Shown piece after piece: positions 278 through 38,200 of a stretch of 40,208 nt of DNA. The position numbers and the translations under genes were made by a program. Below the pieces are notes generated by a model, which saw nothing but the letters and a program-made list of their open reading frames with translations, had not been told where the DNA came from and ran no database searches. Each line of letters opens with the position of its first letter. Positions within the stretch are counted from its first letter, which is position 1. The DNA comes from a virus (Duplodnaviria > Heunggongvirae > Uroviricota > Caudoviricetes), in the IMG/VR virus record IMGVR_UViG_2671180254_000014; one strand, 5' to 3'.

Positions 278-2368
278 ATGTGGGTAACAGCAAAAGAATG
301 TGTTGGTCTTCCTGATTTACCAATGATGGAACATAACATTCGCCATCGACTCACAAAAGCAGCTGCGGGAAATGCAGCCATGTTACGCAAACGTAAGGGG
401 ACAAAAGCAATCGAATTTAATATCGATTGTTTGCCTTCTGGCGCGCAACAAGTATTGCGTGAACGTTATGCCCTTCAACTGATGACGCAAAAAGCTGATG
501 AATCACCGGCTCCGGTGGTGACAAAGGCCAGACGCTCATCTGCCGTGGTTGATGCGGTGGAGGCATATCGCGGATCACCACAACTGATGCTCGAACGCCT
601 CAATGCCCTGACTGAAAACCAGCGCCAGGTGGCTGATGCACGAATCGCGATCGTCAGCGAAGTTCTGAAAGTCGCGCAACAACCTGGTTTCAGCTGTGCG
701 AAGGCTATCCGGTTTATCGTTGACAACCTGGCACGTTCGCAACTGGACGAGCGCATTGTGGCAATGGTTGAGACGGCGAACGCCAAAAAGGGAAACAGCC
801 GTGCGTTGAGTGAAATCACGCTGAAACGCTGGATTGCGGCCTTTAACAAGGCACAGAACGCCGCTGAACGCCTGCTTTTACTGGCACCGGGTAAACGCCA
901 GGAAATAAAAGCCGAAGATATTAACTGGCTGCCCGAATTTCTGGCGCAGTATCGCCAGTCAAACGGCCGACCAATGACCGAGGCTTACGAGGATTTTGTT
1001 GCTGAATGGCAGCACCGGCACGCTGATGAGCCTTATATGCTCGATATCATGCCCTCTTATGACACCATTCGCCGCGCAATGAAGAAACTGCCGGAAGTGG
1101 TGAAACAAAAAGGCCGGGTAACTGGCAGTGAATACCGTCAGCTTGAGGGATTCACGCGCCGCGACTGGTCCAGAATGCCGGTGAATTATGTCTGGATTGG
1201 TGACGGTCACGGCATGAAGCTGAAATGCGCGCACCCGGTTCACGGGCGGCCATTCGCACCGGAAGTGACCTTTGTTATCGACGGTGGCACGCGCTTTGTG
1301 GTGGGCTGGAGCCTTGACCTGGCTGAAAATGTTTTCGCCGTAGCCGGTGCCATACAGCACGGTATTCGCCATCATGGCAAACCGTTTCTGTATTACTCGG
1401 ATAATGGCTCCGGGGAAACCGCCGACGTCCTGGATAAGGAGATTGTGGGGATACTGCCACGACTGGGGATTAATCACCCGACAGGGATTGCCGGTAATCC
1501 GCAGGGACGGGGCATTATCGAACGGCTTAACCGCACATTACCGATGCGCATAGCCCGTAAATACCGCACCTATTTCGGGAAAGGAGCAGATCGCGAGACG
1601 TTACGTAAAACCAACCGCGATTTACGCTCGGCATTCAGTGCCCTGCAACAGGGCAAACGGCTGAACGCCCGGCAGCAGTCAGCGATGCGTGATTTACCGT
1701 CCTGGTCTGAACTGATTGATGCCATTCGTGACGGTGTTGAGTGGTACAACAACCGGCCGCACGATGAATTACCCATGAAGCCGAACGGTAAACATTACAG
1801 CCCGGCGGAGTTCAGAAAAAAACGCCTGGCGGAAGAGGACACGGAAATTGAATGGCTGTCCGATGTTGAACTGCGGGATATGTTCCGGCCGATGGTGGAG
1901 CGCCCTGTAAGACGCTGTGAAATACGCTGGCTGAATAATATTTACTACGCGCCCGAGCTGCGTGACGAGCATGGCCGTAAGGTACTTATCAGCTATGACA
2001 TTCATGATGCCGAACGAATTACCGTGCGCCGCCCGGATGGCAGCGTGATTTGCGAGGCGGTATGGGACGGCAATAAACGCGAAGCCTTCCCTGTCAGCGC
2101 GGAATACTACAAACAGCAGCAGCGCCTTAAAGGCATGCGTAAACGCGCAGAGGAAAAAATCCGTGATGCCGAGGATGAGGTTGTCAACGTGCTGGAGCAC
2201 AAGCCGCAGGAGCCCTGGCTGGAAAACATATACCGCCCTGTGGGTAATACGGTGACCGTTCAGCAACCGGTCGCTGACGATGAACCTGATGAAGAATACG
2301 AGCGTAATTTCCAGCGGGGATTGCAACTGCTCGAAGCGAAATTAAAAGAAAGTGATCCGCTGGCCTGA
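278..2368 (+). CDS. A: Mu-type DDE transposase (MuA-like)
   Basis: 696-aa ORF, acidic-residue-rich central core region (YVWIGDGHG..., YYSDNGSGE...) typical of MuA-type transposases; position after ner. Confidence 0.9.
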   Translation: MWVTAKECVGLPDLPMMEHNIRHRLTKAAAGNAAMLRKRKGTKAIEFNIDCLPSGAQQVLRERYALQLMTQKADESPAPVVTKARRSSAVVDAVEAYRGSPQLMLERLNALTENQRQVADARIAIVSEVLKVAQQPGFSCAKAIRFIVDNLARSQLDERIVAMVETANAKKGNSRALSEITLKRWIAAFNKAQNAAERLLLLAPGKRQEIKAEDINWLPEFLAQYRQSNGRPMTEAYEDFVAEWQHRHADEPYMLDIMPSYDTIRRAMKKLPEVVKQKGRVTGSEYRQLEGFTRRDWSRMPVNYVWIGDGHGMKLKCAHPVHGRPFAPEVTFVIDGGTRFVVGWSLDLAENVFAVAGAIQHGIRHHGKPFLYYSDNGSGETADVLDKEIVGILPRLGINHPTGIAGNPQGRGIIERLNRTLPMRIARKYRTYFGKGADRETLRKTNRDLRSAFSALQQGKRLNARQQSAMRDLPSWSELIDAIRDGVEWYNNRPHDELPMKPNGKHYSPAEFRKKRLAEEDTEIEWLSDVELRDMFRPMVERPVRRCEIRWLNNIYYAPELRDEHGRKVLISYDIHDAERITVRRPDGSVICEAVWDGNKREAFPVSAEYYKQQQRLKGMRKRAEEKIRDAEDEVVNVLEHKPQEPWLENIYRPVGNTVTVQQPVADDEPDEEYERNFQRGLQLLEAKLKESDPLA

Positions 2369-2441
2369 AATAAAAAAATAACCCGAGGGGTGACTCAGGT
2401 TATTTGAGGTTTCAGTCTCGGAGAATGCTGTCTCAAGCGAG

Positions 2442-3383
2442 GTGAATAATATGACCGATATTAACGATGTAATCAAGACCATTGATGAACTTATTGATGG
2501 CGGCGTACTGACGCAGTATGCCATCGCCAGAGAGGCGGGAATTTCCGACGGCACATTATCGGCTTTCCGTAAGGGAAAATATAAAGGCGATAACGCTGCT
2601 GTGGCTGCTTCCCTGCGCTCCTGGTATGAGAACTGGAATAAACAAAGCGCACTGCCGGAACCGCCGCAGTTTGTGGAAACTCAGACAGTCCAGGAGCTGC
2701 GCGCACTGTTTCAGGCGGTTCGCCTGATGGGCTGTATTAACGTTATTGTGGGCGTACCGGGTGTGGGTAAAACGGCCACTGCCCGTAATTACTGCCAGGA
2801 GCAACCAAACACCTGGATGATCACCCTGTCACCCGCGCACTCCAGCGTCACGGAGTGTCTGCTGGAGCTGGCCGATGCGCTGGGGATTGATTACACCCGC
2901 GCGAACAAAGGGGCATTATCCCGCGCCATCCGCCGTCGCCTGACGGGAACGCGTGGACTGGTGATTGTGGATGAGGCGGATCATCTTGGTATTGACGGTC
3001 TGGAGCAACTCCGGGCAATTCAGGACGCCACGGGGATCGGGATGGTGCTTATTGGTAACCCGCGCGGATTGTTTAAAGGTGGACGCCGCGCCTTTGATGA
3101 TTTATCGCGCCTGTTCAGCCGTCTTGCCCGTACAAAACAACTTCGCAAGGCCAAAAAGGCGGATGTGCTGGCCATTGCCAGGGCATGGGGTATCAGTGGT
3201 GAGGCCGAGCTGGCCGTCATGCAGGCTATCGCTGAAAAGCCGGGAGCATTACGTGTTCTGACACATACGCTTAACCAGGCGTGGCTCACCGCCAGCGGTG
3301 AAGGCGCGGCGCTGACAGAAAAACATATTAATGCGGCCTTTAAAGAGGTTTATACCAACCCTGAATTACTCTCACAGGTGTGA
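2442..3383 (+). CDS. B: Mu B-like transposition ATPase
   Basis: 313-aa ORF with Walker A GVPGVGKT and Walker B-like VIVDEAD; follows transposase. Confidence 0.9.
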   Translation: MNNMTDINDVIKTIDELIDGGVLTQYAIAREAGISDGTLSAFRKGKYKGDNAAVAASLRSWYENWNKQSALPEPPQFVETQTVQELRALFQAVRLMGCINVIVGVPGVGKTATARNYCQEQPNTWMITLSPAHSSVTECLLELADALGIDYTRANKGALSRAIRRRLTGTRGLVIVDEADHLGIDGLEQLRAIQDATGIGMVLIGNPRGLFKGGRRAFDDLSRLFSRLARTKQLRKAKKADVLAIARAWGISGEAELAVMQAIAEKPGALRVLTHTLNQAWLTASGEGAALTEKHINAAFKEVYTNPELLSQV

Positions 3384-9153: not shown

Positions 9154-9576
9154 ATGGCTGAAACACAGATGAGCATGTTTGGTGACAGCGAACAGCTGCA
9201 CGCGCTGATTGACCGTCTGGATGATATTCCTGATGATGAGCTGAAAAAGAACTGGCCCGGCACGCTGCGGGACCTGGTTGATGTGATCAGTGCTGAACTG
9301 CACCGTCAGGGGATTGAACCTGCTCAGGCGGGAATGCTTGCCCGTAAGGTTGCAGCCGCACAGGCCGGGTACATGGGCGGGCGTGGTTATTATCTCCCGG
9401 TCGGTGAATCCCTTTTCACCGAACTGCGCAATAATGAAATTTTTTCCCGCTGGAGCCAGGGCGAAAAAATTGAAACCCTGCGCCGCCACTACCAGATGTC
9501 AGAGACGCAGATTTACTCCGTTATCCGCAACCAGCGTCGCCTGCATCAGGAGCGCACGCAGCCCCGGCTTTTCTGA
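9154..9576 (+). CDS. Mor/C-family transcriptional activator
   Basis: 140-aa ORF; acidic N-terminus, central GGxxYYLPxG-like core and C-terminal helix-turn-helix region as in Mu Mor/C; only one family member seen. Confidence 0.8.
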   Translation: MAETQMSMFGDSEQLHALIDRLDDIPDDELKKNWPGTLRDLVDVISAELHRQGIEPAQAGMLARKVAAAQAGYMGGRGYYLPVGESLFTELRNNEIFSRWSQGEKIETLRRHYQMSETQIYSVIRNQRRLHQERTQPRLF

Positions 9577-14133: not shown

Positions 14134-15722
14134 TGGGACGCATCATTGATACTGACGGAAAACCTTTCTCCTTTGACCCGGAGATGCAGAGTGCCGCGCT
14201 GGATATTCCGCAGATTGCCAGCCGTTATATTGAACATCCGGCTTCGGGTATCACCCCGAACCGGGCGGCGCAGTGCCTTCGCGGGGCTGAACGTGGCGAT
14301 CTGATTGCCCAGTCCGATCTGGCCGCTGATATTGAAGAAAAGGACACCCACCTTTTTGCGGAGCTGGGCAAGCGACGTCTTGCCATTCAGGGGGTGCCAT
14401 GGAGTATTGAGCCGCCACCGAACGCCAGCGCGAATGAGAAAAAGGACGCGGAAATGCTCGACGAATATCTGCATTCCGCAGACTGGTTTGATGCCATGCT
14501 GTTTGACGCCACGGATGCCATCCTGAAGGGCTATTCCTGCATGGAAATTGAGCACGGGATGCTCGGTAAAATGCACATCATCCGCGCCATCCGCTGGCGT
14601 GACAGCGGGCATTTCTGCCTTAACCCGGATGATTTGAGCGAACTGCGGCTGCGTGACGGCAGCCATGCCGGGGTGGCGTTTCAGCCTTTTGGCTGGATAG
14701 TGCATCAGTCACGTTCACGGACCGGTTACGGTGGCGCAACGGGGCTTGTCAGGACGCTTATCTGGCCGTTCATTTTCAAAAACTATTCCGTGCGCGATCT
14801 GGCCGAATTTCTGGAGGTGTACGGACTGCCGATGAAGGTCGGGAAATACCCGTCCGGGGCAACACCGGAGCAGAAAAGCGCCCTGATGCGGGCGGTGATG
14901 GATATCGGGCGACGTACAGGCGGGATCATCCCGGCCGGGATGTCGCTGGAATTTCAGGCGGCAGCAAACGGTCAGGCCGATCCATTTGAAACCATGATTT
15001 CGTGGGGGGAGCGTTCCATCTCCAAAGCAATACTCGGCGGCACGCTGACCACGGAAGCCGGAGACAAAGGCGCGCGCTCGCTGGGTGAGGTGCATAACGA
15101 GGTGCGCCGGGAAATCAGGGATTCTGATTTACGGCAGCTGGCTGCAACCCTGAACCGCGATCTGGTGTATCCGCTGTACGCCCTGAACACCACGCACACT
15201 ATTGATATCCGCCGTCTGCCACGTATCTGCTTCCAGACCAAAGAACCAGGTGATATCACCAAAATCACCAGTGCGGTGATGCAGCTCAGTACGGGGATGG
15301 ATATTTCTGATCCCTGGATACGGGAGCAGACCGGTATTCCGCAGCCCACGCCCGGTGAAGCCATATTCCGTGTCCGTCAGAGTGGCAATGAACCGGCTCA
15401 GACCGACAGGGAAACACCACCGGAAAAACAGGAAAAAACAGAGCAGACGGCGCTGTCAGCCAGACTGCCGGAAGCGAAAAGCACGCCGCGTGATGAACTG
15501 GATGATATGGGGGACGCGGTGCCTGCCCGCCGCTTACAGGAGGCCATCGACCCGGTACTGGAGCCGGTCATTGATGCCATCAGAACGCGGGGGCTGGCGG
15601 ATGCGCTGGCAGACCTGCCTGCCCTTTATCGTGAAATGGATGATTCCCGCCTGATGACGCTGCTCAGTGATGCCATGTTTGCTGCGGAAATGAAGGGGAT
15701 GCTGGATGACACAGGGGATTGA
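14133..15722 (+). CDS. portal protein (Mu gp29-like)
   Basis: 529-aa ORF directly after terminase; Mu-like order. Confidence 0.8.
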   Translation: MGRIIDTDGKPFSFDPEMQSAALDIPQIASRYIEHPASGITPNRAAQCLRGAERGDLIAQSDLAADIEEKDTHLFAELGKRRLAIQGVPWSIEPPPNASANEKKDAEMLDEYLHSADWFDAMLFDATDAILKGYSCMEIEHGMLGKMHIIRAIRWRDSGHFCLNPDDLSELRLRDGSHAGVAFQPFGWIVHQSRSRTGYGGATGLVRTLIWPFIFKNYSVRDLAEFLEVYGLPMKVGKYPSGATPEQKSALMRAVMDIGRRTGGIIPAGMSLEFQAAANGQADPFETMISWGERSISKAILGGTLTTEAGDKGARSLGEVHNEVRREIRDSDLRQLAATLNRDLVYPLYALNTTHTIDIRRLPRICFQTKEPGDITKITSAVMQLSTGMDISDPWIREQTGIPQPTPGEAIFRVRQSGNEPAQTDRETPPEKQEKTEQTALSARLPEAKSTPRDELDDMGDAVPARRLQEAIDPVLEPVIDAIRTRGLADALADLPALYREMDDSRLMTLLSDAMFAAEMKGMLDDTGD

Positions 15723-17037
15723 TTTAGGTTATGCCGCCACGCTTCCCTCAAAAGAGGCGGTAGCATACTTCCGTGTCAAAGGGGCGCATATCAGCTGGAA
15801 CTGGTTCGAAACAGCCGCGGATGTTCATGCCCGCTCATTCACGGCAGCAAAAGCGGCACGCCTGGATGTGGTGACCACGTTACAGGCCGAAGTGCAGCGG
15901 GCCATTGATGAGGGAATTTCACAGAAAGCATTTATCCGCACGCTGACGCCACGCCTGCAAAAGCTGGGATGGTGGGGAAAGCAGATTGTGGTGGACAGCG
16001 ACGGTAACGCGGAAGAAGTGCAACTGGGCAGTCCCCGTCGTCTGGCGCTGATTTACAACGTGAACACCCGTGTGGCTTACAATGCCGGGCGTTACACGCA
16101 GATGATGAACAACACGGACACGCATCCGTTCTGGCAGTATGTGGCGGTCATGGACAGCCGTACCCGCCCGTCGCATTCCGCCCTTAACGGTCTGGTATTC
16201 CGCTATGACGATCCGTTCTGGAAAACACACTACCCACCTAATGGCTGGAACTGCCGCTGCCGTGTGCGGCCATTGTCTCAGGCTCGTCTGGATGCAATGG
16301 GGTTATCCGTTTCATCCGGTGAGGATCATCTCTCCACCCGCAATGTTGAGGCTGGCGTGGATAAACAGACCGGAGAAGTCAGAGAAATGCCGGTGACCAC
16401 ATATTCAGATGGCACCAGAACCATGACACCGGATGTGGGCTGGTCATATAACCCCGGCTCGGCAGCGTTCGGCACAGACCAGGCGCTGATCCGCAAACTG
16501 ATCGAGGTGAAAAGCCCGGCGTTACGGGAAATGGTGGTTCAGGAGATGAACAACAGCCCGGAGCGGCAGCTGGCGTTCCGCATCTGGGCAAAAAACATCA
16601 TGCAGACCCGGCGAGGTGGTAACGATATCCGCACGCTGGGCTTTATGACTGAAAGCATTGCGCAGGCAGTGGAAAGCCGGACGGGAACGCCACCGGCCCG
16701 CCTGCTGGCGATGAGCGGTAAAAATGTGCTCCATGCAGACAGTGTGAAACATCAGAATGACGGCATCGCCCTGATGCCAGAGGACTTCGGGCGCTTACCG
16801 GCAATGCTGGCAAAGCCAAAAGCGGTGCTGTGGGACAAACGGCACAAAAATCTGATGTATATCGTGGAAAATAAGGATGGCAGTGTGCAGATTGCCGTTA
16901 ATGCACCGTACAGTCTGAAACGTCAGCCCGACAAACTGGATGTGATTGTGAATGCTTACCGGGTTATCAATATGGATAAGCTGAAATCGGATATCCGGGG
17001 CGGAATGCTTGAGGTGCTGGAAGGACAAATTGATTAA
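15706..17037 (+). CDS. head morphogenesis protein (Mu F-like)
   Basis: 443-aa ORF after portal; Mu F position. Confidence 0.75.
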   Translation: MTQGIDLGYAATLPSKEAVAYFRVKGAHISWNWFETAADVHARSFTAAKAARLDVVTTLQAEVQRAIDEGISQKAFIRTLTPRLQKLGWWGKQIVVDSDGNAEEVQLGSPRRLALIYNVNTRVAYNAGRYTQMMNNTDTHPFWQYVAVMDSRTRPSHSALNGLVFRYDDPFWKTHYPPNGWNCRCRVRPLSQARLDAMGLSVSSGEDHLSTRNVEAGVDKQTGEVREMPVTTYSDGTRTMTPDVGWSYNPGSAAFGTDQALIRKLIEVKSPALREMVVQEMNNSPERQLAFRIWAKNIMQTRRGGNDIRTLGFMTESIAQAVESRTGTPPARLLAMSGKNVLHADSVKHQNDGIALMPEDFGRLPAMLAKPKAVLWDKRHKNLMYIVENKDGSVQIAVNAPYSLKRQPDKLDVIVNAYRVINMDKLKSDIRGGMLEVLEGQID

Positions 17038-17158
17038 CGGTCAGTGGCGGGGGTCGAACCCGCATACATGATCCACCCGGAGGCAGGCACCGACTTTACC
17101 AGTTAAGCGTACACTGACCGCCTGTTTATTTTATATTCATCCTTTATGCGGAGGCAAT

Positions 17159-17632
17159 ATGTCATCCATTGATGCCGCTGTCGTTGTTGACGTTACGCGT
17201 CTCCAGCGGGTGTTTGCCCGGCTTCAGTTTGTGGGCGGCGGAAAAGACCTGGCCCGCAGTGTGGCGGAGAGTCTTCTGTCATCGTCAGAAATGGCGTTTG
17301 AACAGGAAAAAGAGCCGGACGGCGAACGCTGGCATGACTGGTCAGATCCTTACCGCAAGTGGCGTACCCGTAAGGGATACACGCCCGGCAAAATCCTGAC
17401 ACTGAACGGCGATCTGGCCCGCCGCCTGACCACGGATTATGGCGATACCTGGGCGCTGATTGGATCAAATGAACCTTATGCGGCCATTCATCAGTGGGGT
17501 GGCCTGCCTGGTATGCCACCGGGACCGGCGGCCATTGGCGCACGTCCGTATATGGGCTTTGATCAGGTGGCAGAACAGGAGATCATGGACGAAATCAGAA
17601 AACGCTTTAAAAAGGCCACAGAAACGCCGTAA
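17159..17632 (+). CDS. virion morphogenesis protein (Mu G-like)
   Basis: 157-aa ORF in Mu G position. Confidence 0.7.
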   Translation: MSSIDAAVVVDVTRLQRVFARLQFVGGGKDLARSVAESLLSSSEMAFEQEKEPDGERWHDWSDPYRKWRTRKGYTPGKILTLNGDLARRLTTDYGDTWALIGSNEPYAAIHQWGGLPGMPPGPAAIGARPYMGFDQVAEQEIMDEIRKRFKKATETP

Positions 17633-17809
17633 TGGTTTAAGGTATACAAACGCATTACCTTACCCTCTTCAGGCGCGTGTCGTGATTTTCTAACCTGTAT
17701 TTAACGGGCTTTAAAATCTGCGTGAAGCGCCTTTCTCATTTTTCCCCTGTCAGCACTTTCTGAAGTCCCGCAAAACCGGCCCCGAAAAACACCGGCTTAT
17801 GCTGCCGGA

Positions 17810-33919: not shown

Positions 33920-35974
33920 ATGTCAGACTCCAAGTGGAAAATGCTCTCCGCCATGCCCGGAGAGTTTTCAGTCAAGGTTGCCGGTGGCACGGTGGCATTT
34001 ATTGAAAGCCCTTTCCGCCCTTCGGGTAATAAAGGGGGGATCACCTTCGCAGACTGCGTGATCCGCTTCAGCACGAAAGAGCCATTATGGGTAATGCCGG
34101 TATCCGGTAATCCCAGTGCAGAAATCACCAGTTCAGGCGTGACTGGCATCATTCCAATCACATCTGACGTGGCCGGAACGCTCACGCCCTCCGACTGGAA
34201 TGCACCGGATAACGCCGGGCCTTCCGGTAGCACGAATGGCAGCAGTTCAGAGCCGGAATATTACTTTGTTGTCATTCTCGCGGGTCAGTCAAATGGCATG
34301 GCCTACGGCGAGGGGCTGCCGTTACCGGATTCGTTTGACCGCCCGGACCCACGCATTAAGCAACTGGCACGCCGCAGTACGGTAACGCCCAACGGTACGT
34401 CGTGTACATACAACGACATCATTCCGGCAGACCACTGCCTGCATGATGTTCAGGATATGAGCGGGATAAACCACCCGAAAGCTGATCTGGCAAAAGGCCA
34501 GTACGGGACTGTCGGTCAGGGGTTGCATATTGCCAAAAAACTGCTTCCCTATATCCCACAGAATGCCGGGATACTTCTGGTGCCCTGTTGTCGTGGCGGG
34601 TCAGCATTCACCACTGGAGCCGACGGCTCATTCAGTGAGGCCAGCGGTGCTTCCGCTGATTCTTCACGCTGGGGGGCCGGTAAACCTCTGTATCAGGACC
34701 TGGTAAGCCGCACCAAAGTCGCGCTGGCGAAAAACCCGAAAAACAAACTTCTGGCTGTGGTCTGGATGCAGGGAGAGGCAGACCTTGCCTCAGGAAGCCA
34801 GCAGCATAATAGTTTATTCACGGCCATGGTTCAGCAGTTCAGAACTGACCTGGCTCCGCTTGCTGCGCAGTGCGTGAGTGGAAATGCCACCACGGTGCCG
34901 TGGATTTGCGGTGATACCACGTATTACTGGAAAAACGCTGGCACCGATAAATATGAGGCAGTATACGGTGGCTACAAAGGCAAGGAAGCACAGAAAATTT
35001 TCTTTGTACCGTTCCTGACGGATGAGAATGGACAGAGCACGCCAACGAATGCTCCGGCGGAAGACCCGGATATTGTGGCTGTCGGGTATTACGGTGCAGC
35101 ATCCCGAACCCAGGGCAGTTTTGTTTCGACACAGCGTGACAGCCATTTCAGCTCATGGGCACGCAGGGGCGTCATTTCAGACCGTCTGGCCTCAGCTATT
35201 ATGCTCCATGCAGGGCGCACGGCTGAACTGATGCGCGGGCAGACCGTGACACCACCGGATGAGAAGCCGTCACCTGATACACCATCAAAACCGTCCACGC
35301 CACCCGCAGACACCACGACGATGAGTACGCTATTTGCTTACCGGGCATCTGAGTCTGAAGGACGGTTGACACCACAGGGTTGGGCTGCCGGAGGTGGCAA
35401 GGCTCAAATCGTGGATGATGCCGGAGCCAGCGGGGGTAAGGCAATGAAACTGACCAAGGAAACAGGAAGAGCCCCCTGGTACCTTGAGCATGATGCTGGT
35501 AATGGTGCGGACCTGCTGGGTAAAGGTGGTCTTGTCAGTTGTCGTTTTAAACTCGATGGCGCGCTTACGGCTAATCAGTACGCACTGGCGCTGTACTGGC
35601 CGGTTTCTGCCCTGCCGCAAGGGGTTACTCTGGAAGGAAATGCCGGTCATAACCTGCTGGCATCGTTCTACGTACAGAGCGATGCCACAGACCTTAACGT
35701 GATGTATCACAAAGGAAACACGGCGCAGAACACGAAGCTGGGGTCATTCGGCGCATTTAATAACGAATGGCATACGCTGGGCTTCCGTTTTGCCGGTAAC
35801 AACAGTATTGAGGTGACGCCGGTCATTGATGGTAAGGACGGGACACCATTCATGCTGTCGCAGTCTCCGGTCGGCACGTTTACGGCAGACAAGTTGCGCG
35901 TGACCGATATCACTAAAAATGCGACTTACCCGGTACTGATTGACAGTATCGTGGTGGAAGTGAATAACGCGTAA
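33920..35974 (+). CDS. SASA/SGNH-type carbohydrate esterase (sialate O-acetylesterase-like) with C-terminal beta-sandwich-like domain
   Basis: 684-aa ORF; GQSN motif at residues 122-125 (YYFVVILAGQSNGMAYGEG) and downstream WMQGEAD block; Ser/Pro/Thr-rich linker then ~200-aa Gly/Asn-rich C-terminal domain. Confidence 0.55.
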   Translation: MSDSKWKMLSAMPGEFSVKVAGGTVAFIESPFRPSGNKGGITFADCVIRFSTKEPLWVMPVSGNPSAEITSSGVTGIIPITSDVAGTLTPSDWNAPDNAGPSGSTNGSSSEPEYYFVVILAGQSNGMAYGEGLPLPDSFDRPDPRIKQLARRSTVTPNGTSCTYNDIIPADHCLHDVQDMSGINHPKADLAKGQYGTVGQGLHIAKKLLPYIPQNAGILLVPCCRGGSAFTTGADGSFSEASGASADSSRWGAGKPLYQDLVSRTKVALAKNPKNKLLAVVWMQGEADLASGSQQHNSLFTAMVQQFRTDLAPLAAQCVSGNATTVPWICGDTTYYWKNAGTDKYEAVYGGYKGKEAQKIFFVPFLTDENGQSTPTNAPAEDPDIVAVGYYGAASRTQGSFVSTQRDSHFSSWARRGVISDRLASAIMLHAGRTAELMRGQTVTPPDEKPSPDTPSKPSTPPADTTTMSTLFAYRASESEGRLTPQGWAAGGGKAQIVDDAGASGGKAMKLTKETGRAPWYLEHDAGNGADLLGKGGLVSCRFKLDGALTANQYALALYWPVSALPQGVTLEGNAGHNLLASFYVQSDATDLNVMYHKGNTAQNTKLGSFGAFNNEWHTLGFRFAGNNSIEVTPVIDGKDGTPFMLSQSPVGTFTADKLRVTDITKNATYPVLIDSIVVEVNNA

Positions 35975-37261: not shown

Positions 37262-37308
37262 GATTGAGTGATAAAGATATCAACAACAAAGCAGGAGGTT
37301 ATGCGGCC

Positions 37309-37509
37309 ATGTATCGAAACATACGGTGCCGACATTGTAACAAGCTACTGGCACGAGCCAGCTTCAGTTATCTGGAAGTTAAATGTCCGCGCTGTAAAAC
37401 CCTCAATCAAATCACATCTCAGAGCGCCACAGAGCACCCCACATACACAAGGAAATCCTGTCGTGGGGAACAGAAAGCAAGTTACATCCCGTATCATCAG
37501 CACGCCTGA
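37309..37509 (+). CDS. com: Com, zinc-finger translational activator of mom
   Basis: [26 protein letters not shown] closely parallels Mu Com as I recall it (IRCKNCNKLL...RCPRCK); GCAGGAGG RBS; ATG 37309 inside ORF 37264..37509. Confidence 0.8.
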
Positions 37510-38200
37510 ACTTATTCACTATAACGACAATATCGTCGGTTATGGCTCCCGTGAGTTACGGGTTGAGACAATAAGTTGCTGGCTGGCCCGGCTGGTCGTC
37601 GTCAATAAACATTACAGCCATCGTTTCGTAAATAATTCCTACCTTCATCTGGGCATATTTTCAGAACGGGAGCTGGTTGGCGTAATGCAATGGGGTTATG
37701 CCCTTAATCCAAACAATGGTGCACGCGTCGTAACTGGCACGCAGAACCGCGAATATATGGAGCTTAACCGGTTATGGCTGCATGACTGTATGCCGAGAAA
37801 CTCCGAATCAAGGGCAATCAGTTACGCGCTCAAACTAATCAGACAACTTTATCCGCAGGTGCAGTGGGTTCAGTCGTTTGCAGATGAGCGTTGTGGCTGT
37901 CTTGGTGTCGTGTACCAGGCAAGCAATTTTGATTATGTAGGCAGTCATGAAACAACATTCTATGAACTTGATGGCGAGTGGTATCACGAGATTTGCAAGA
38001 ATGCAATCAAACGAGGAGGACAGCGAGGTGAACATCTGCGGGCTAATATCGACAGAGCCAGTGTTCATAAATTCCGTCAGTTTCGTTACATCCGGTTTCT
38101 GGACAAGAGAGCCAGAAAACGCCTTAACACAAAGCTATTCAAAGTCCAGCCTTACCCAAAACCACAAACAGTTAAAACTGGTTTGAAAGAGAGTGAATGA
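37463..38200 (+). CDS. mom: Mom-like DNA modification protein; start codon uncertain
   Basis: ORF 37268..38200 overlaps com 3' end in another frame as in Mu; GTG 37463 preceded by AAGGAAA is the only plausible start near the com stop; identity rests on synteny with com. Confidence 0.65.

Follow-up and report, generated by a model that had tools for sequence, protein, structure and literature searches.

In a Mu-like (transposable) prophage of E. coli, a small gene lies between the head genes F and G, antisense to both; its predicted product has the shape of a tRNA, lacks an anticodon and would be unable to decode. Judging from the sequences, this RNA keeps the whole tRNA architecture, including the L-shape, the elbow nucleotides and a pair of the A15/U48 type, and the gene appears to be a moron-type unit, with a predicted promoter of its own (and, in one group, a terminator), placed between conserved genes and variably present. 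The reading that we favour, with a probability of about 0.4, is that the RNA might act as a decoy, as a non-chargeable and non-decoding tRNA mimic.

Setting and structure of the RNA gene

The window, i.e., the whole stretch of 40,208 nucleotides analysed here, is an almost complete Mu-like prophage of E. coli, 95.6% identical to the "inserted Mu-like phage" of two Stx-phage records. Its gene order runs from the transposase genes A and B through an early region and an activator of the Mor/C family to the late genes, among them those for portal, F, G, protease and major head. The F-G region was found in 231 of 5426 complete E. coli genomes. The RNA gene is placed in the 121-nt gap between F and G, antisense to the late genes, in the middle of the prophage and 17 kb from its left end. 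The features concerned are the following.

278-3383: transposase genes A and B
9154-9576: Mor/C-family activator
15706..17037, plus strand: F, head morphogenesis protein, left neighbour (domains Phage_Mu_F and MuF_C)
17038..17122, minus strand: tRNA-shaped small RNA gene (Rfam tRNA, covariance model R1, PGAP)
17112..17119, minus strand: acceptor helix, 5' strand, position -1 and positions 1-7, GGUCAGUG, pairing with 17039-17046
17093..17108, minus strand: D arm, stem GCUU/AAGU, loop AACUGGUA with G18 and G19 (Rfam alignment)
17068..17090, minus strand: arm at the anticodon-arm position (folding; covariation of its outer stem)
17047..17063, minus strand: T arm, stem GCGGG/CCCGC, loop UUCGACC (Rfam alignment)
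17039..17046, minus strand: acceptor helix, 3' strand, CACUGACC, with no CCA after it
17128..17157, minus strand: sigma-70-type promoter of the RNA gene, predicted from sequence
17159..17632, plus strand: G, virion morphogenesis protein, right neighbour (Phage_tail_S)
37268-38200: Mom homologue, prophage end

The core of the RNA gene runs from 17119 to 17039 and is preceded by 2-3 leader bases able to pair with the trailer; the GUU at 17038-17036, where the F stop codon adjoins, can pair with the leader, and in the window this stop codon lies 1-2 bases from the RNA 3' end. A preliminary description of this DNA had reported an 8-bp outer stem and an inner hairpin GCGGG-TTCGACC-CCCGC on the minus strand, and both were found exactly so, the stem as GGTCAGTG (17119-17112) with CACTGACC (17046-17039) and the hairpin at 17063-17047. 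It had seen neither a convincing D arm nor an anticodon arm; the D arm does exist (GCUU/AAGU, 17108-17093, with GG in the loop), but an anticodon arm is indeed missing, and an irregular helix takes its place. Ahead of the D arm stand U8, A9 and an additional C (17111-17109). In the window, the arm at the anticodon position is an 8-bp interrupted helix made of an outer stem GUG/CAU, a 1x2 internal loop, an inner stem CUGCC/GGUGG and a tetraloop UCCG (17081-17078). The tertiary nucleotides of the cloverleaf, namely U8, A14, G18G19 and the T-loop UUCRA, are present.

The Rfam tRNA family RF00005 scores 31 bits on the minus strand at 17118-17039, the gathering score being 29 and E 9.6e-5, in an alignment that covers the acceptor stem, D arm and T arm and skips the anticodon arm, where the RNA has 24 nt vs 18. 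The covariance model R1, built here from 15 distinct sequences of the family, gives 95.4 bits at 17119-17038. The identical locus in strain FORC_069 is labelled "tRNA-OTHER" by PGAP, as it is in many genomes, and the call is lost in a common variant with one T-loop change, G57A. The RNA folding that had also been proposed as a check was less telling: the stems do fold, but the minimum free energy (MFE) of the single sequence, -35 kcal/mol, is not significant (z = -1.35, with 18 of 200 shuffles folding equally well), so folding energy alone proves nothing and the case rests on the Rfam match and on covariation.

The replacement arm is the sole variable part of the RNA, 17 to ~38 nt long and always a hairpin. 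In E. coli phages it occurs as CUGCC-UCCG/UUCG-GGUGG, as ACCC-UCAG/UCCG/UUCG-GGGU, as CCUGAUGG-UUUUUU-CCUGAGGG and as CCUGAGGG-AUAUCUUCA-CCCGAAGG with tandem G·A, and elsewhere as CCC-UUCG-GGG, as GC-GCAA-GC, as a 7-bp stem with AACA and in other forms. The arm loops have 3-14 nt (3-6 in most members) and are mostly UUCG, UCCG or GCAA, i.e., of the UNCG or GNRA kind. A 5-bp anticodon stem with a 7-nt loop (U33, anticodon, purine 37) was seen in none of more than 35 distinct relatives. The tRNA genes of E. coli encode a free 3' end N73-CCA. In this RNA no CCA is encoded after position 73, and the trailer often pairs with the leader, giving a closed acceptor helix of 8-11 bp. In the acceptor helix and at the discriminator the pairing is kept and the sequence is not, which argues against any fixed aminoacylation identity; the identity element G3·U70 is absent, positions 3:70 being C-G, and G-1:C73 is not conserved. 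ARAGORN called 0 tRNA genes in the window and in four related loci. The Rfam tRNA scores of relatives range from 19.8 to 46 bits and some members have no match at E up to 0.01, so that membership of the tRNA family by score is marginal.

Known classes of tRNA and tRNA-like RNA were tried against these features and set aside. For the tRNA-like domain of tmRNA, ARAGORN finds no tmRNA, the D stem is present and covaries, and 3:70 is C-G. Histidine identity (G-1:C73) does not fit a pair -1:73 that is A-U, G·U or U-A in many members and missing in the L235-L244 group, and the 8/5 geometry of the selenocysteine type is contradicted by the D arm, the variable region and a helix that often has 9-11 bp. 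For the Y RNA YrlA, tRNA is the only family reported by Rfam at E up to 10, and the neighbours are F and G; for an antisense RNA of the C4/CI kind, there is neither an Rfam C4 match nor, in the window, an arm target beyond chance.

A sigma-70-type promoter is predicted for the RNA gene in the window, with a -35 box TTGCCT (17157-17152), an 18-nt spacer and a -10 box TAAAAT (17133-17128), and transcription would start near 17121-17122; across lineages the predicted start lies 0-5 nt before the acceptor helix. A T-rich run had been remarked on next to the structure, on the plus strand; it exists (17124-17136), but it is no terminator tail, its letters being the minus-strand -10 box TAAAAT and neighbouring bases read on the opposite strand. 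The -35 box of the window overlaps the G Shine-Dalgarno sequence on the opposite strand, and that of relatives overlaps the G ribosome-binding site or start codon. In nearly all divergent relatives, a -10 box (TAAAAT, TATACT, TATAAT) and a -35 box (TTGCCT, TTGAAC, TTGCAT) stand in the same place, as in TTGAAC-17-TATACT and in TTGCAT-16-TAAAAT with an extended -10; one locus, L198, has no clear -10. In the group made up of L235-L244 and Photorhabdus, a canonical intrinsic terminator GCCCCG-UUAUU-CGGGGC-UUUGUUGUU follows directly after the RNA, and in E. coli the F stop codon adjoins the RNA 3' end instead.

Covariation, strand and distribution

Comparison of relatives provides further evidence for the fold. 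In a MAFFT alignment of 15 sequences (A2), 99.7% of the stem cells are paired and 8 of 20 pairs are changed on both sides; the covariation score is 0.376 vs 0.193 in shuffles, with 0 of 500 shuffles reaching the observed value, and only 40-55% of cells pair when the partners are slid by 1-3 columns. A larger alignment of 30 distinct sequences (A4), which was fitted to the covariance model and agrees with the independent MAFFT alignment, has pairing in 99.3% of its stem cells and compensatory changes in 14 of 19 pairs, with all four helices represented; again 0 of 500 shuffles reach the observed score, and slid partners are paired in 39-53%. Compensatory changes affect 7 of 8 acceptor pairs and 3 of 5 T-arm pairs, the D stem covaries in the L235-L244 group (C-G to A-U, U-A to A-U), and the outer stem of the replacement arm covaries as well. 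The pair -1:73 is G-C, A-U, G·U or U-A among relatives, the L235-L244 group being without it. Applied to the MAFFT alignment, RNAalifold predicted the acceptor stem and the T stem and missed the canonical D stem, which is attributed to the alignment of the variable arm. The earlier wording "tRNA-like" is thus borne out by the Rfam tRNA match and by paired positions kept with compensatory changes, and the Rfam scan and conservation check proposed with it yielded both a match and conserved pairing.

The unpaired positions conserved at 90% or more are UGUAC, UAA..GGUAA, CG, UAUG and GGUUC.A..CC. Read against established tRNA structure, these would be the nucleotides of the tRNA core and elbow, i.e., U8-A14, G18/G19 with the T loop, and the A15/U48-type pair. 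In addition, the stem cells contain 38 G·U vs 2 A·C combinations, and pairing is 99.3% on the minus strand vs 92.9% on the plus strand. The excess of G·U over A·C indicates that the selected molecule is the minus-strand RNA and not the late mRNA. A structured regulatory element, one of three identities that the preliminary description had offered, could still be meant, but as a separate minus-strand RNA gene and not as a structure of the F-G mRNA.

Searching IMG/VR with the T-arm sequence brought up 29 loci, 28 of which are Mu-like phages with the element between F and G and antisense to both. Moreover, 80 Mu-like loci were fetched with the G protein as anchor, and the covariance model matches 55 of them, every match being on the minus strand with its end ~40 nt ahead of the G start; some of these phages have a G with no more than 41-44% identity to the query. 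The F-G gap measures 111-168 nt with the RNA vs -1 to 29 nt without it; the single exception, a 241-nt gap without the RNA, probably reflects a miscalled F end. In phage Mu, F and G overlap and the RNA is absent. Taxonomic breadth was assessed through G-protein homologues with organism names and their contigs, and through a metagenome scan. The RNA is also found in prophages of Arsenophonus, Photorhabdus and Gilliamella and, in more divergent form, of Pseudoalteromonas; a Serratia prophage and a Shewanella prophage are without it, F and G abutting there. In the metagenome scan, phages with as little as ~29-31% G identity still had the RNA in the F-G gap. The carrier hosts span at least three gammaproteobacterial orders (Enterobacterales, Orbales, Alteromonadales). 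When genome contigs were scanned with a loose pattern, no family member by the covariance model was among the matches listed (at least 120); those listed were chance hits and class II tRNAs.

The RNA has changed less than the coding DNA on either side of it, with 1 mismatch over 89 nt of RNA and ~15 over a 401-nt region, hence ~14 in the flanks. A T-loop variant, A58C, occurs in several prophages. At locus L005, two RNA variants were compared. Among E. coli phages with 97-98% identical G, the RNA alternates between two body types, A and B, and a change of body type goes along with a change in the final ~85 F codons (the MuF_C domain), which suggests that the locus is exchanged as a module, although mere adjacency of the RNA and the F end may produce the same pattern. 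Present in some relatives and absent from others, the RNA gene has the sequence signature of an accessory module.

These comparisons also bear on the other two identities first suggested, a tRNA remnant and a relic attachment core, neither of which held up. The whole cloverleaf is under purifying selection even where the flanking G is only ~30-40% identical; the carrier is a transposable Mu-like phage, and the element always lies inside the late operon with a promoter of its own. A complete cloverleaf in the middle of a transposable prophage, conserved with covariation, is not what a remnant or an attachment-site core would look like.

Integrase islands with tandem copies

A copy of ~85% identity, annotated as tRNA-Tyr, led to an integrase island of ~8 kb. 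It carries genes for an integrase, a 298-aa protein without assigned function, an HTH protein, ash, two Icd-like proteins, a DUF4222 protein, a RepA/AAA_25 helicase, an SSB, PerC and a Mor-family activator; the Mor gene is followed by GTGAAA(T) iterons and then by two or three tandem, diverged tRNA-like genes. One strain has the island at tRNA-Ile and another has it within mdtP. It was found in 14 of 5426 genomes, and the same islands are present in gut metagenomes. A further tRNA-like copy lies elsewhere in 13 of the 14 carriers, and 6 of these 13 copies were confirmed as Mu-like prophages, vs a background of ~4%.

Island and window prophage have only the Mor/C homologue (48% amino-acid identity) and the tRNA-like RNA in common. 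In strain STEC17-183, each of the three island copies resembles a different E. coli helper type, with 82-90% identity; the arms of the island copies do not match helper arms, and the longest perfect identity between island and window copies is ~26 nt. Pfam and PADLOC, run on the accessory ORFs of prophage and island, found no tRNA-related enzyme. Satellite P4 uses its delta protein in relation to the late-gene activator of P2, Ogr. By analogy, the island likely has the profile of a satellite that uses a homologue of its helper's late-gene activator, and its tandem arrays beside a Mor activator point to a candidate satellite of Mu-like phages. A Mu-like phage replicates by transposition and packages by headful, which raises the question of how a satellite could exploit such a phage.

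Possible functions and relation to known systems

Host RNA polymerase would transcribe the RNA gene from its own sigma-70 promoter with no need for phage activators, and expression would thus be expected in the lysogen or immediately on infection. The host would treat the transcript as a tRNA, and the host tRNA machinery probably processes it, as with phage tRNAs; at least the release of monomers from the island arrays would call for RNase P and 3' trimming. It might then accumulate as a stable tRNA look-alike that never enters translation. An intact tRNA body minus decoding and charging predicts a partner that reads tRNA shape, and, speculatively, the RNA could occupy such a protein as a mimic. 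The most plausible target would be a tRNA-targeting nuclease, or another tRNA-directed defence or toxin, and, having neither an anticodon loop to be cleaved nor a 3' end to be charged, a decoy would bind without being consumed. The gene might then be a counter-defence or conflict accessory gene, also carried in multicopy by the presumed satellite.

The decoy is favoured because the selected features are those of the tRNA body, because the gene behaves as an accessory module and because the putative satellite keeps several copies. Several points count against it, nevertheless. A stoichiometric decoy must compete with the very large cellular tRNA pool; neither a tRNA-targeting enzyme nor another partner is encoded nearby; the fixed F-G position, down to ~29% G identity, fits a role in the late operon equally well; the presence in the island of one copy per body type is left unexplained; and the A58C variant indicates that the constraint on the elbow is not absolute. 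More tentative than the decoy as such is the wider proposal of an uncleavable and unchargeable decoy against a tRNA-directed defence or toxin, shared by Mu-like phages with undescribed, Mor-encoding satellites that parasitise them and keep diverged arrays. If true, it would provide the first non-decoding tRNA mimic in phage counter-defence and the first satellite system for Mu-like phages.

The main rival, which we consider unlikely, is antisense regulation of the late operon. The RNA is complementary over its whole length to the stretch between F and G in the late mRNA; the three loops of the RNA may start kissing with a mirror-image mRNA structure, as in RNA I/RNA II of ColE1, and the duplex could be cut by RNase III or alter G expression. 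The tRNA shape would then serve only biogenesis and stability via RNase P, as in the C4 RNA of P1 and the CI RNA of P4, and the island copies, one per helper body type, could interfere with or tune helper F/G in trans. Such a role would account for the strict conservation of the antisense F-G position across deep divergence, for a promoter that overlaps the G ribosome-binding region, for the separate G start by which insertion of the RNA replaces the F/G overlap of Mu, and for three island copies each like a different helper type (82-90% identity). However, the RNA covers neither the G Shine-Dalgarno nor any coding sequence, its conservation peaks in tRNA tertiary-interaction nucleotides that antisense pairing would not need, and stable UNCG/GNRA tetraloops are poor kissing loops; in addition, the arms of island and helper differ, and Rfam found no family of the C4/CI type. 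An 8-nt complementarity of the arm (UGCCUCCG) to the G Shine-Dalgarno region was considered and dropped, being absent from relatives with a UUCG loop. The remaining readings, i.e., a scaffold, a DNA-level element, a decoding tRNA and a pseudogene, are progressively less compatible with the data. Improbable, in our estimate, is a tRNA body that merely provides processing and nuclease resistance to an active variable arm, which would bind, for example, a lineage-specific phage or host protein. Hypervariability confined to an arm that is always a hairpin, the swapping of RNA type between near-identical phages and the several different arms of the island would suit it, but an arm that is, for most lineages, a plain stem rich in G+C under a UUCG/UCCG/GNRA cap carries little information, similar CCC-UUCG-GGG arms recur in distant lineages, and a search of the 40-kb window for a trans target of the arm gave only 8-11-nt matches, at chance level.

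It is still less probable that the element works at the level of DNA or transcription, so that a strong convergent promoter or highly transcribed unit would matter and the RNA product would not, be it by insulating the late genes from read-through in the lysogen, by supercoiling near the central gyrase site or by offering the island a patch of homology for recombination with the helper. Its central place in the prophage, ~0.6 kb away from the G-I gap that holds the gyrase site in Mu, the conserved position of the promoter and the fact that, apart from Mor, the RNA alone is common to island and helper speak for it; compensatory changes and the G·U bias point instead to selection on a folded RNA, one lineage terminates transcription directly after it, and perfect identity between island and window is at most ~26 nt. 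We hold out very little prospect for a genuine, unusual decoding tRNA (e.g., a tRNA-Tyr or a frameshift or nonsense suppressor). The Rfam scores above gathering in the window and several relatives (31-46 bits) and the tRNA-Tyr label that PGAP gave to one island copy would agree with it, but the canonical stem and loop with U33 occur in no member, the loop of the "Tyr" copy itself is a 6-nt UGUACA, loop sequences are not conserved, the acceptor end is closed without an encoded CCA, and ARAGORN rejects all members tested. Least credible is a functionless, decaying tRNA pseudogene or integration-site leftover, which the comparative data refute: an anticodon arm that looks "broken", an insignificant folding energy for the single sequence and the existence of the A58C variant may recall decay, but phages from three or more gammaproteobacterial orders have the RNA in one and the same place, 14 of 19 pairs carry compensatory changes, the RNA is better conserved than the coding DNA beside it, and its promoter is conserved, with a terminator as well in one lineage. 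A toxin at the F C-terminus, with the RNA as its "immunity", was also rejected, as F has the same length and domains (Phage_Mu_F and MuF_C) in Mu, which is without the RNA.

With a partner predicted to read its tRNA shape, the RNA is an easy handle for pull-downs and genetics. Annotation pipelines either flag it only as "tRNA-OTHER" or miss it, and even if it were only a stable by-product, it would still give a clean new Rfam family and correct a recurrent annotation. Rfam has no separate family for it, the general tRNA model alone giving a match, and the full-text literature yielded no description of a conserved, anticodon-less, tRNA-shaped RNA at a fixed place in the morphogenesis operon of transposable phages. 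A large screen for virus RNAs holds thousands of unnamed candidates (PMC10690425), and the RNA may be among them.

tRNAs carried by phages are a known phenomenon, as are a few tRNA mimics of bacteria and eukaryotic viruses. With phage-encoded tRNAs (RF00005), the RNA has in common the cloverleaf, the acceptor, D and T arms, the elbow nucleotides, the carriage by phages and a PGAP annotation as tRNA; it differs from them in the lack of an anticodon loop and of an encoded CCA, in the closed acceptor helix of 8-11 bp, in the variable arm and in the lack of an ARAGORN call. Engineered tRNA scaffolds, in which the anticodon arm is swapped for an insert, are reportedly stable and correctly processed in E. 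coli (Ponchon and Dardel). Their design is identical, but they are artificial, and the RNA described here is a natural, conserved gene family. Pseudo-tRNAs with non-translational roles are said to have been reviewed by Katz et al. in 2016; the "tRNA-Other" of Bacillus cereus and other pseudo-tRNAs have a normal anticodon loop, are chargeable and are chromosomal. The type represented by "tRNA-Other" resembles the RNA in being tRNA-derived and kept for a function outside decoding, and differs from it in that the latter is phage-borne.

Among small RNAs of phages and satellites with tRNA-like features are C4 of P1/P7 and CI of P4, which are cut by RNase P from longer transcripts. The Icd-like and ash genes of the island are typical of the immunity regions of P1 and P4. 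For the RNA itself, there was no Rfam C4 match at E up to 10 and no repeated, loop-complementary targets were found in the window; moreover, it has a full D arm and a canonical T loop, and C4 and CI are without both. In the case of YrlA, the RNA ends in a Ro-binding stem, the "acceptor" is closed by a loop and the topology is permuted. YrlA, encoded in the rsr-yrlBA-rtcBA operon of Salmonella, is like the present RNA a non-decoding mimic of the acceptor, T and D arms, with a continuing helix where the anticodon would be; its links are to Rsr/Ro and RtcB, whereas the RNA in the F-G gap has no Rfam YrlA match and no rsr or rtcB neighbour and ends at the acceptor helix. The Mu-like phages of Pseudomonas have an anti-CRISPR locus at the neighbouring junction of G and protease. 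As with the moron and anti-defence loci of Mu-like phages, the RNA gene is a small insert in the F-G-I region that has its own promoter, is variably present and recombines; unlike them, it yields an RNA and not a protein, runs antisense to the operon and keeps its position far more strictly. [quoted passage not shown] On sequence grounds, the RNA belongs with tRNA mimics and non-canonical phage tRNAs, and its definition as a family is solid.

Exchange of the F end together with the RNA

The end of F carrying the MuF_C domain and the type of the tRNA-like RNA (A or B, the two body types found in E. coli phages) form one mosaic block, which is swapped between phages that are otherwise ~97-99% identical. 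When the window is compared with phages of the type of Sp18, the Mu-like prophage of O157:H7 Sakai, 32 of the 83 final F residues differ, versus only 0-3 per 40 residues upstream. A TTG-start ORF of 77 codons lies antisense within F, directly downstream of the RNA, and is probably spurious.

Features of the block in the window:
16780-17037, last ~85 codons of F, first part of the mosaic block
17038-17158, the remainder of the block, including the tRNA-like RNA (minus strand)
17052-17058, T loop of the tRNA-like RNA
16795-17028, minus strand, 77-codon antisense ORF

Among near-identical prophages, two natural T-loop variants were found, UUCAACC (G57A) and UUCGCCC (A58C). Roughly half of the E. 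coli RNA copies carry the former, for which PGAP drops the annotation. The latter should have a weaker T54-A58 pair.

The Mor-encoding island and other loci

The tRNA-like genes also occur, two to three in tandem, in an island of ~8 kb carried by 14 of 5426 E. coli genomes and inserted either at tRNA-Ile or in the interior of mdtP. Its genes encode an integrase, ash, Icd-like genes, RepA helicase, SSB, PerC and a Mor-family activator. A Mu-like prophage is nearly always present in genomes with this island (13 of the 14 carriers have a further tRNA-like copy, 6 of these copies being confirmed as Mu-like prophages), which makes the island a candidate for a satellite of transposable phages. A run of GTGAAA(G/T) iterons separates the Mor gene from the first tRNA-like copy and is probably the replication origin of the island or a protein-binding array.

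Features of the island in two loci, L161 and L162:
L161 12646-20700 (NZ_CP075652.1 2238645-2246700), island
L161 20186-20262, GTGAAA(G/T) iteron run
L162 1500-9400 (in NZ_AP045176.1), island

A divergent member of the RNA family was observed at 328-385 of the metagenomic contig L281, with a Mor-like gene ~2.5 kb away on the opposite strand; neither F nor G was detectable on this contig. The 101-kb viral contig L016 carries apparently ordinary class II tRNA genes (2364-2456 and 2656-2743) with the same T-arm sequence as the RNA of the Mu-like family, to which they are unrelated.

Other features of the window prophage

Close to the right end of the prophage lies a NanS-like accessory gene, a 684-aa ORF (33920-35974) whose product combines DUF6645 with a SASA sialate O-acetylesterase domain. 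The right-end region is marked by a Mom-family gene (37268-38200; PF25680, 260 bits), whose product has an N-terminal extension of ~95 residues. A gap of 177 nt (17633-17809) separates G from the protease gene; the annotation of phage Mu puts the central strong gyrase site at the equivalent place.
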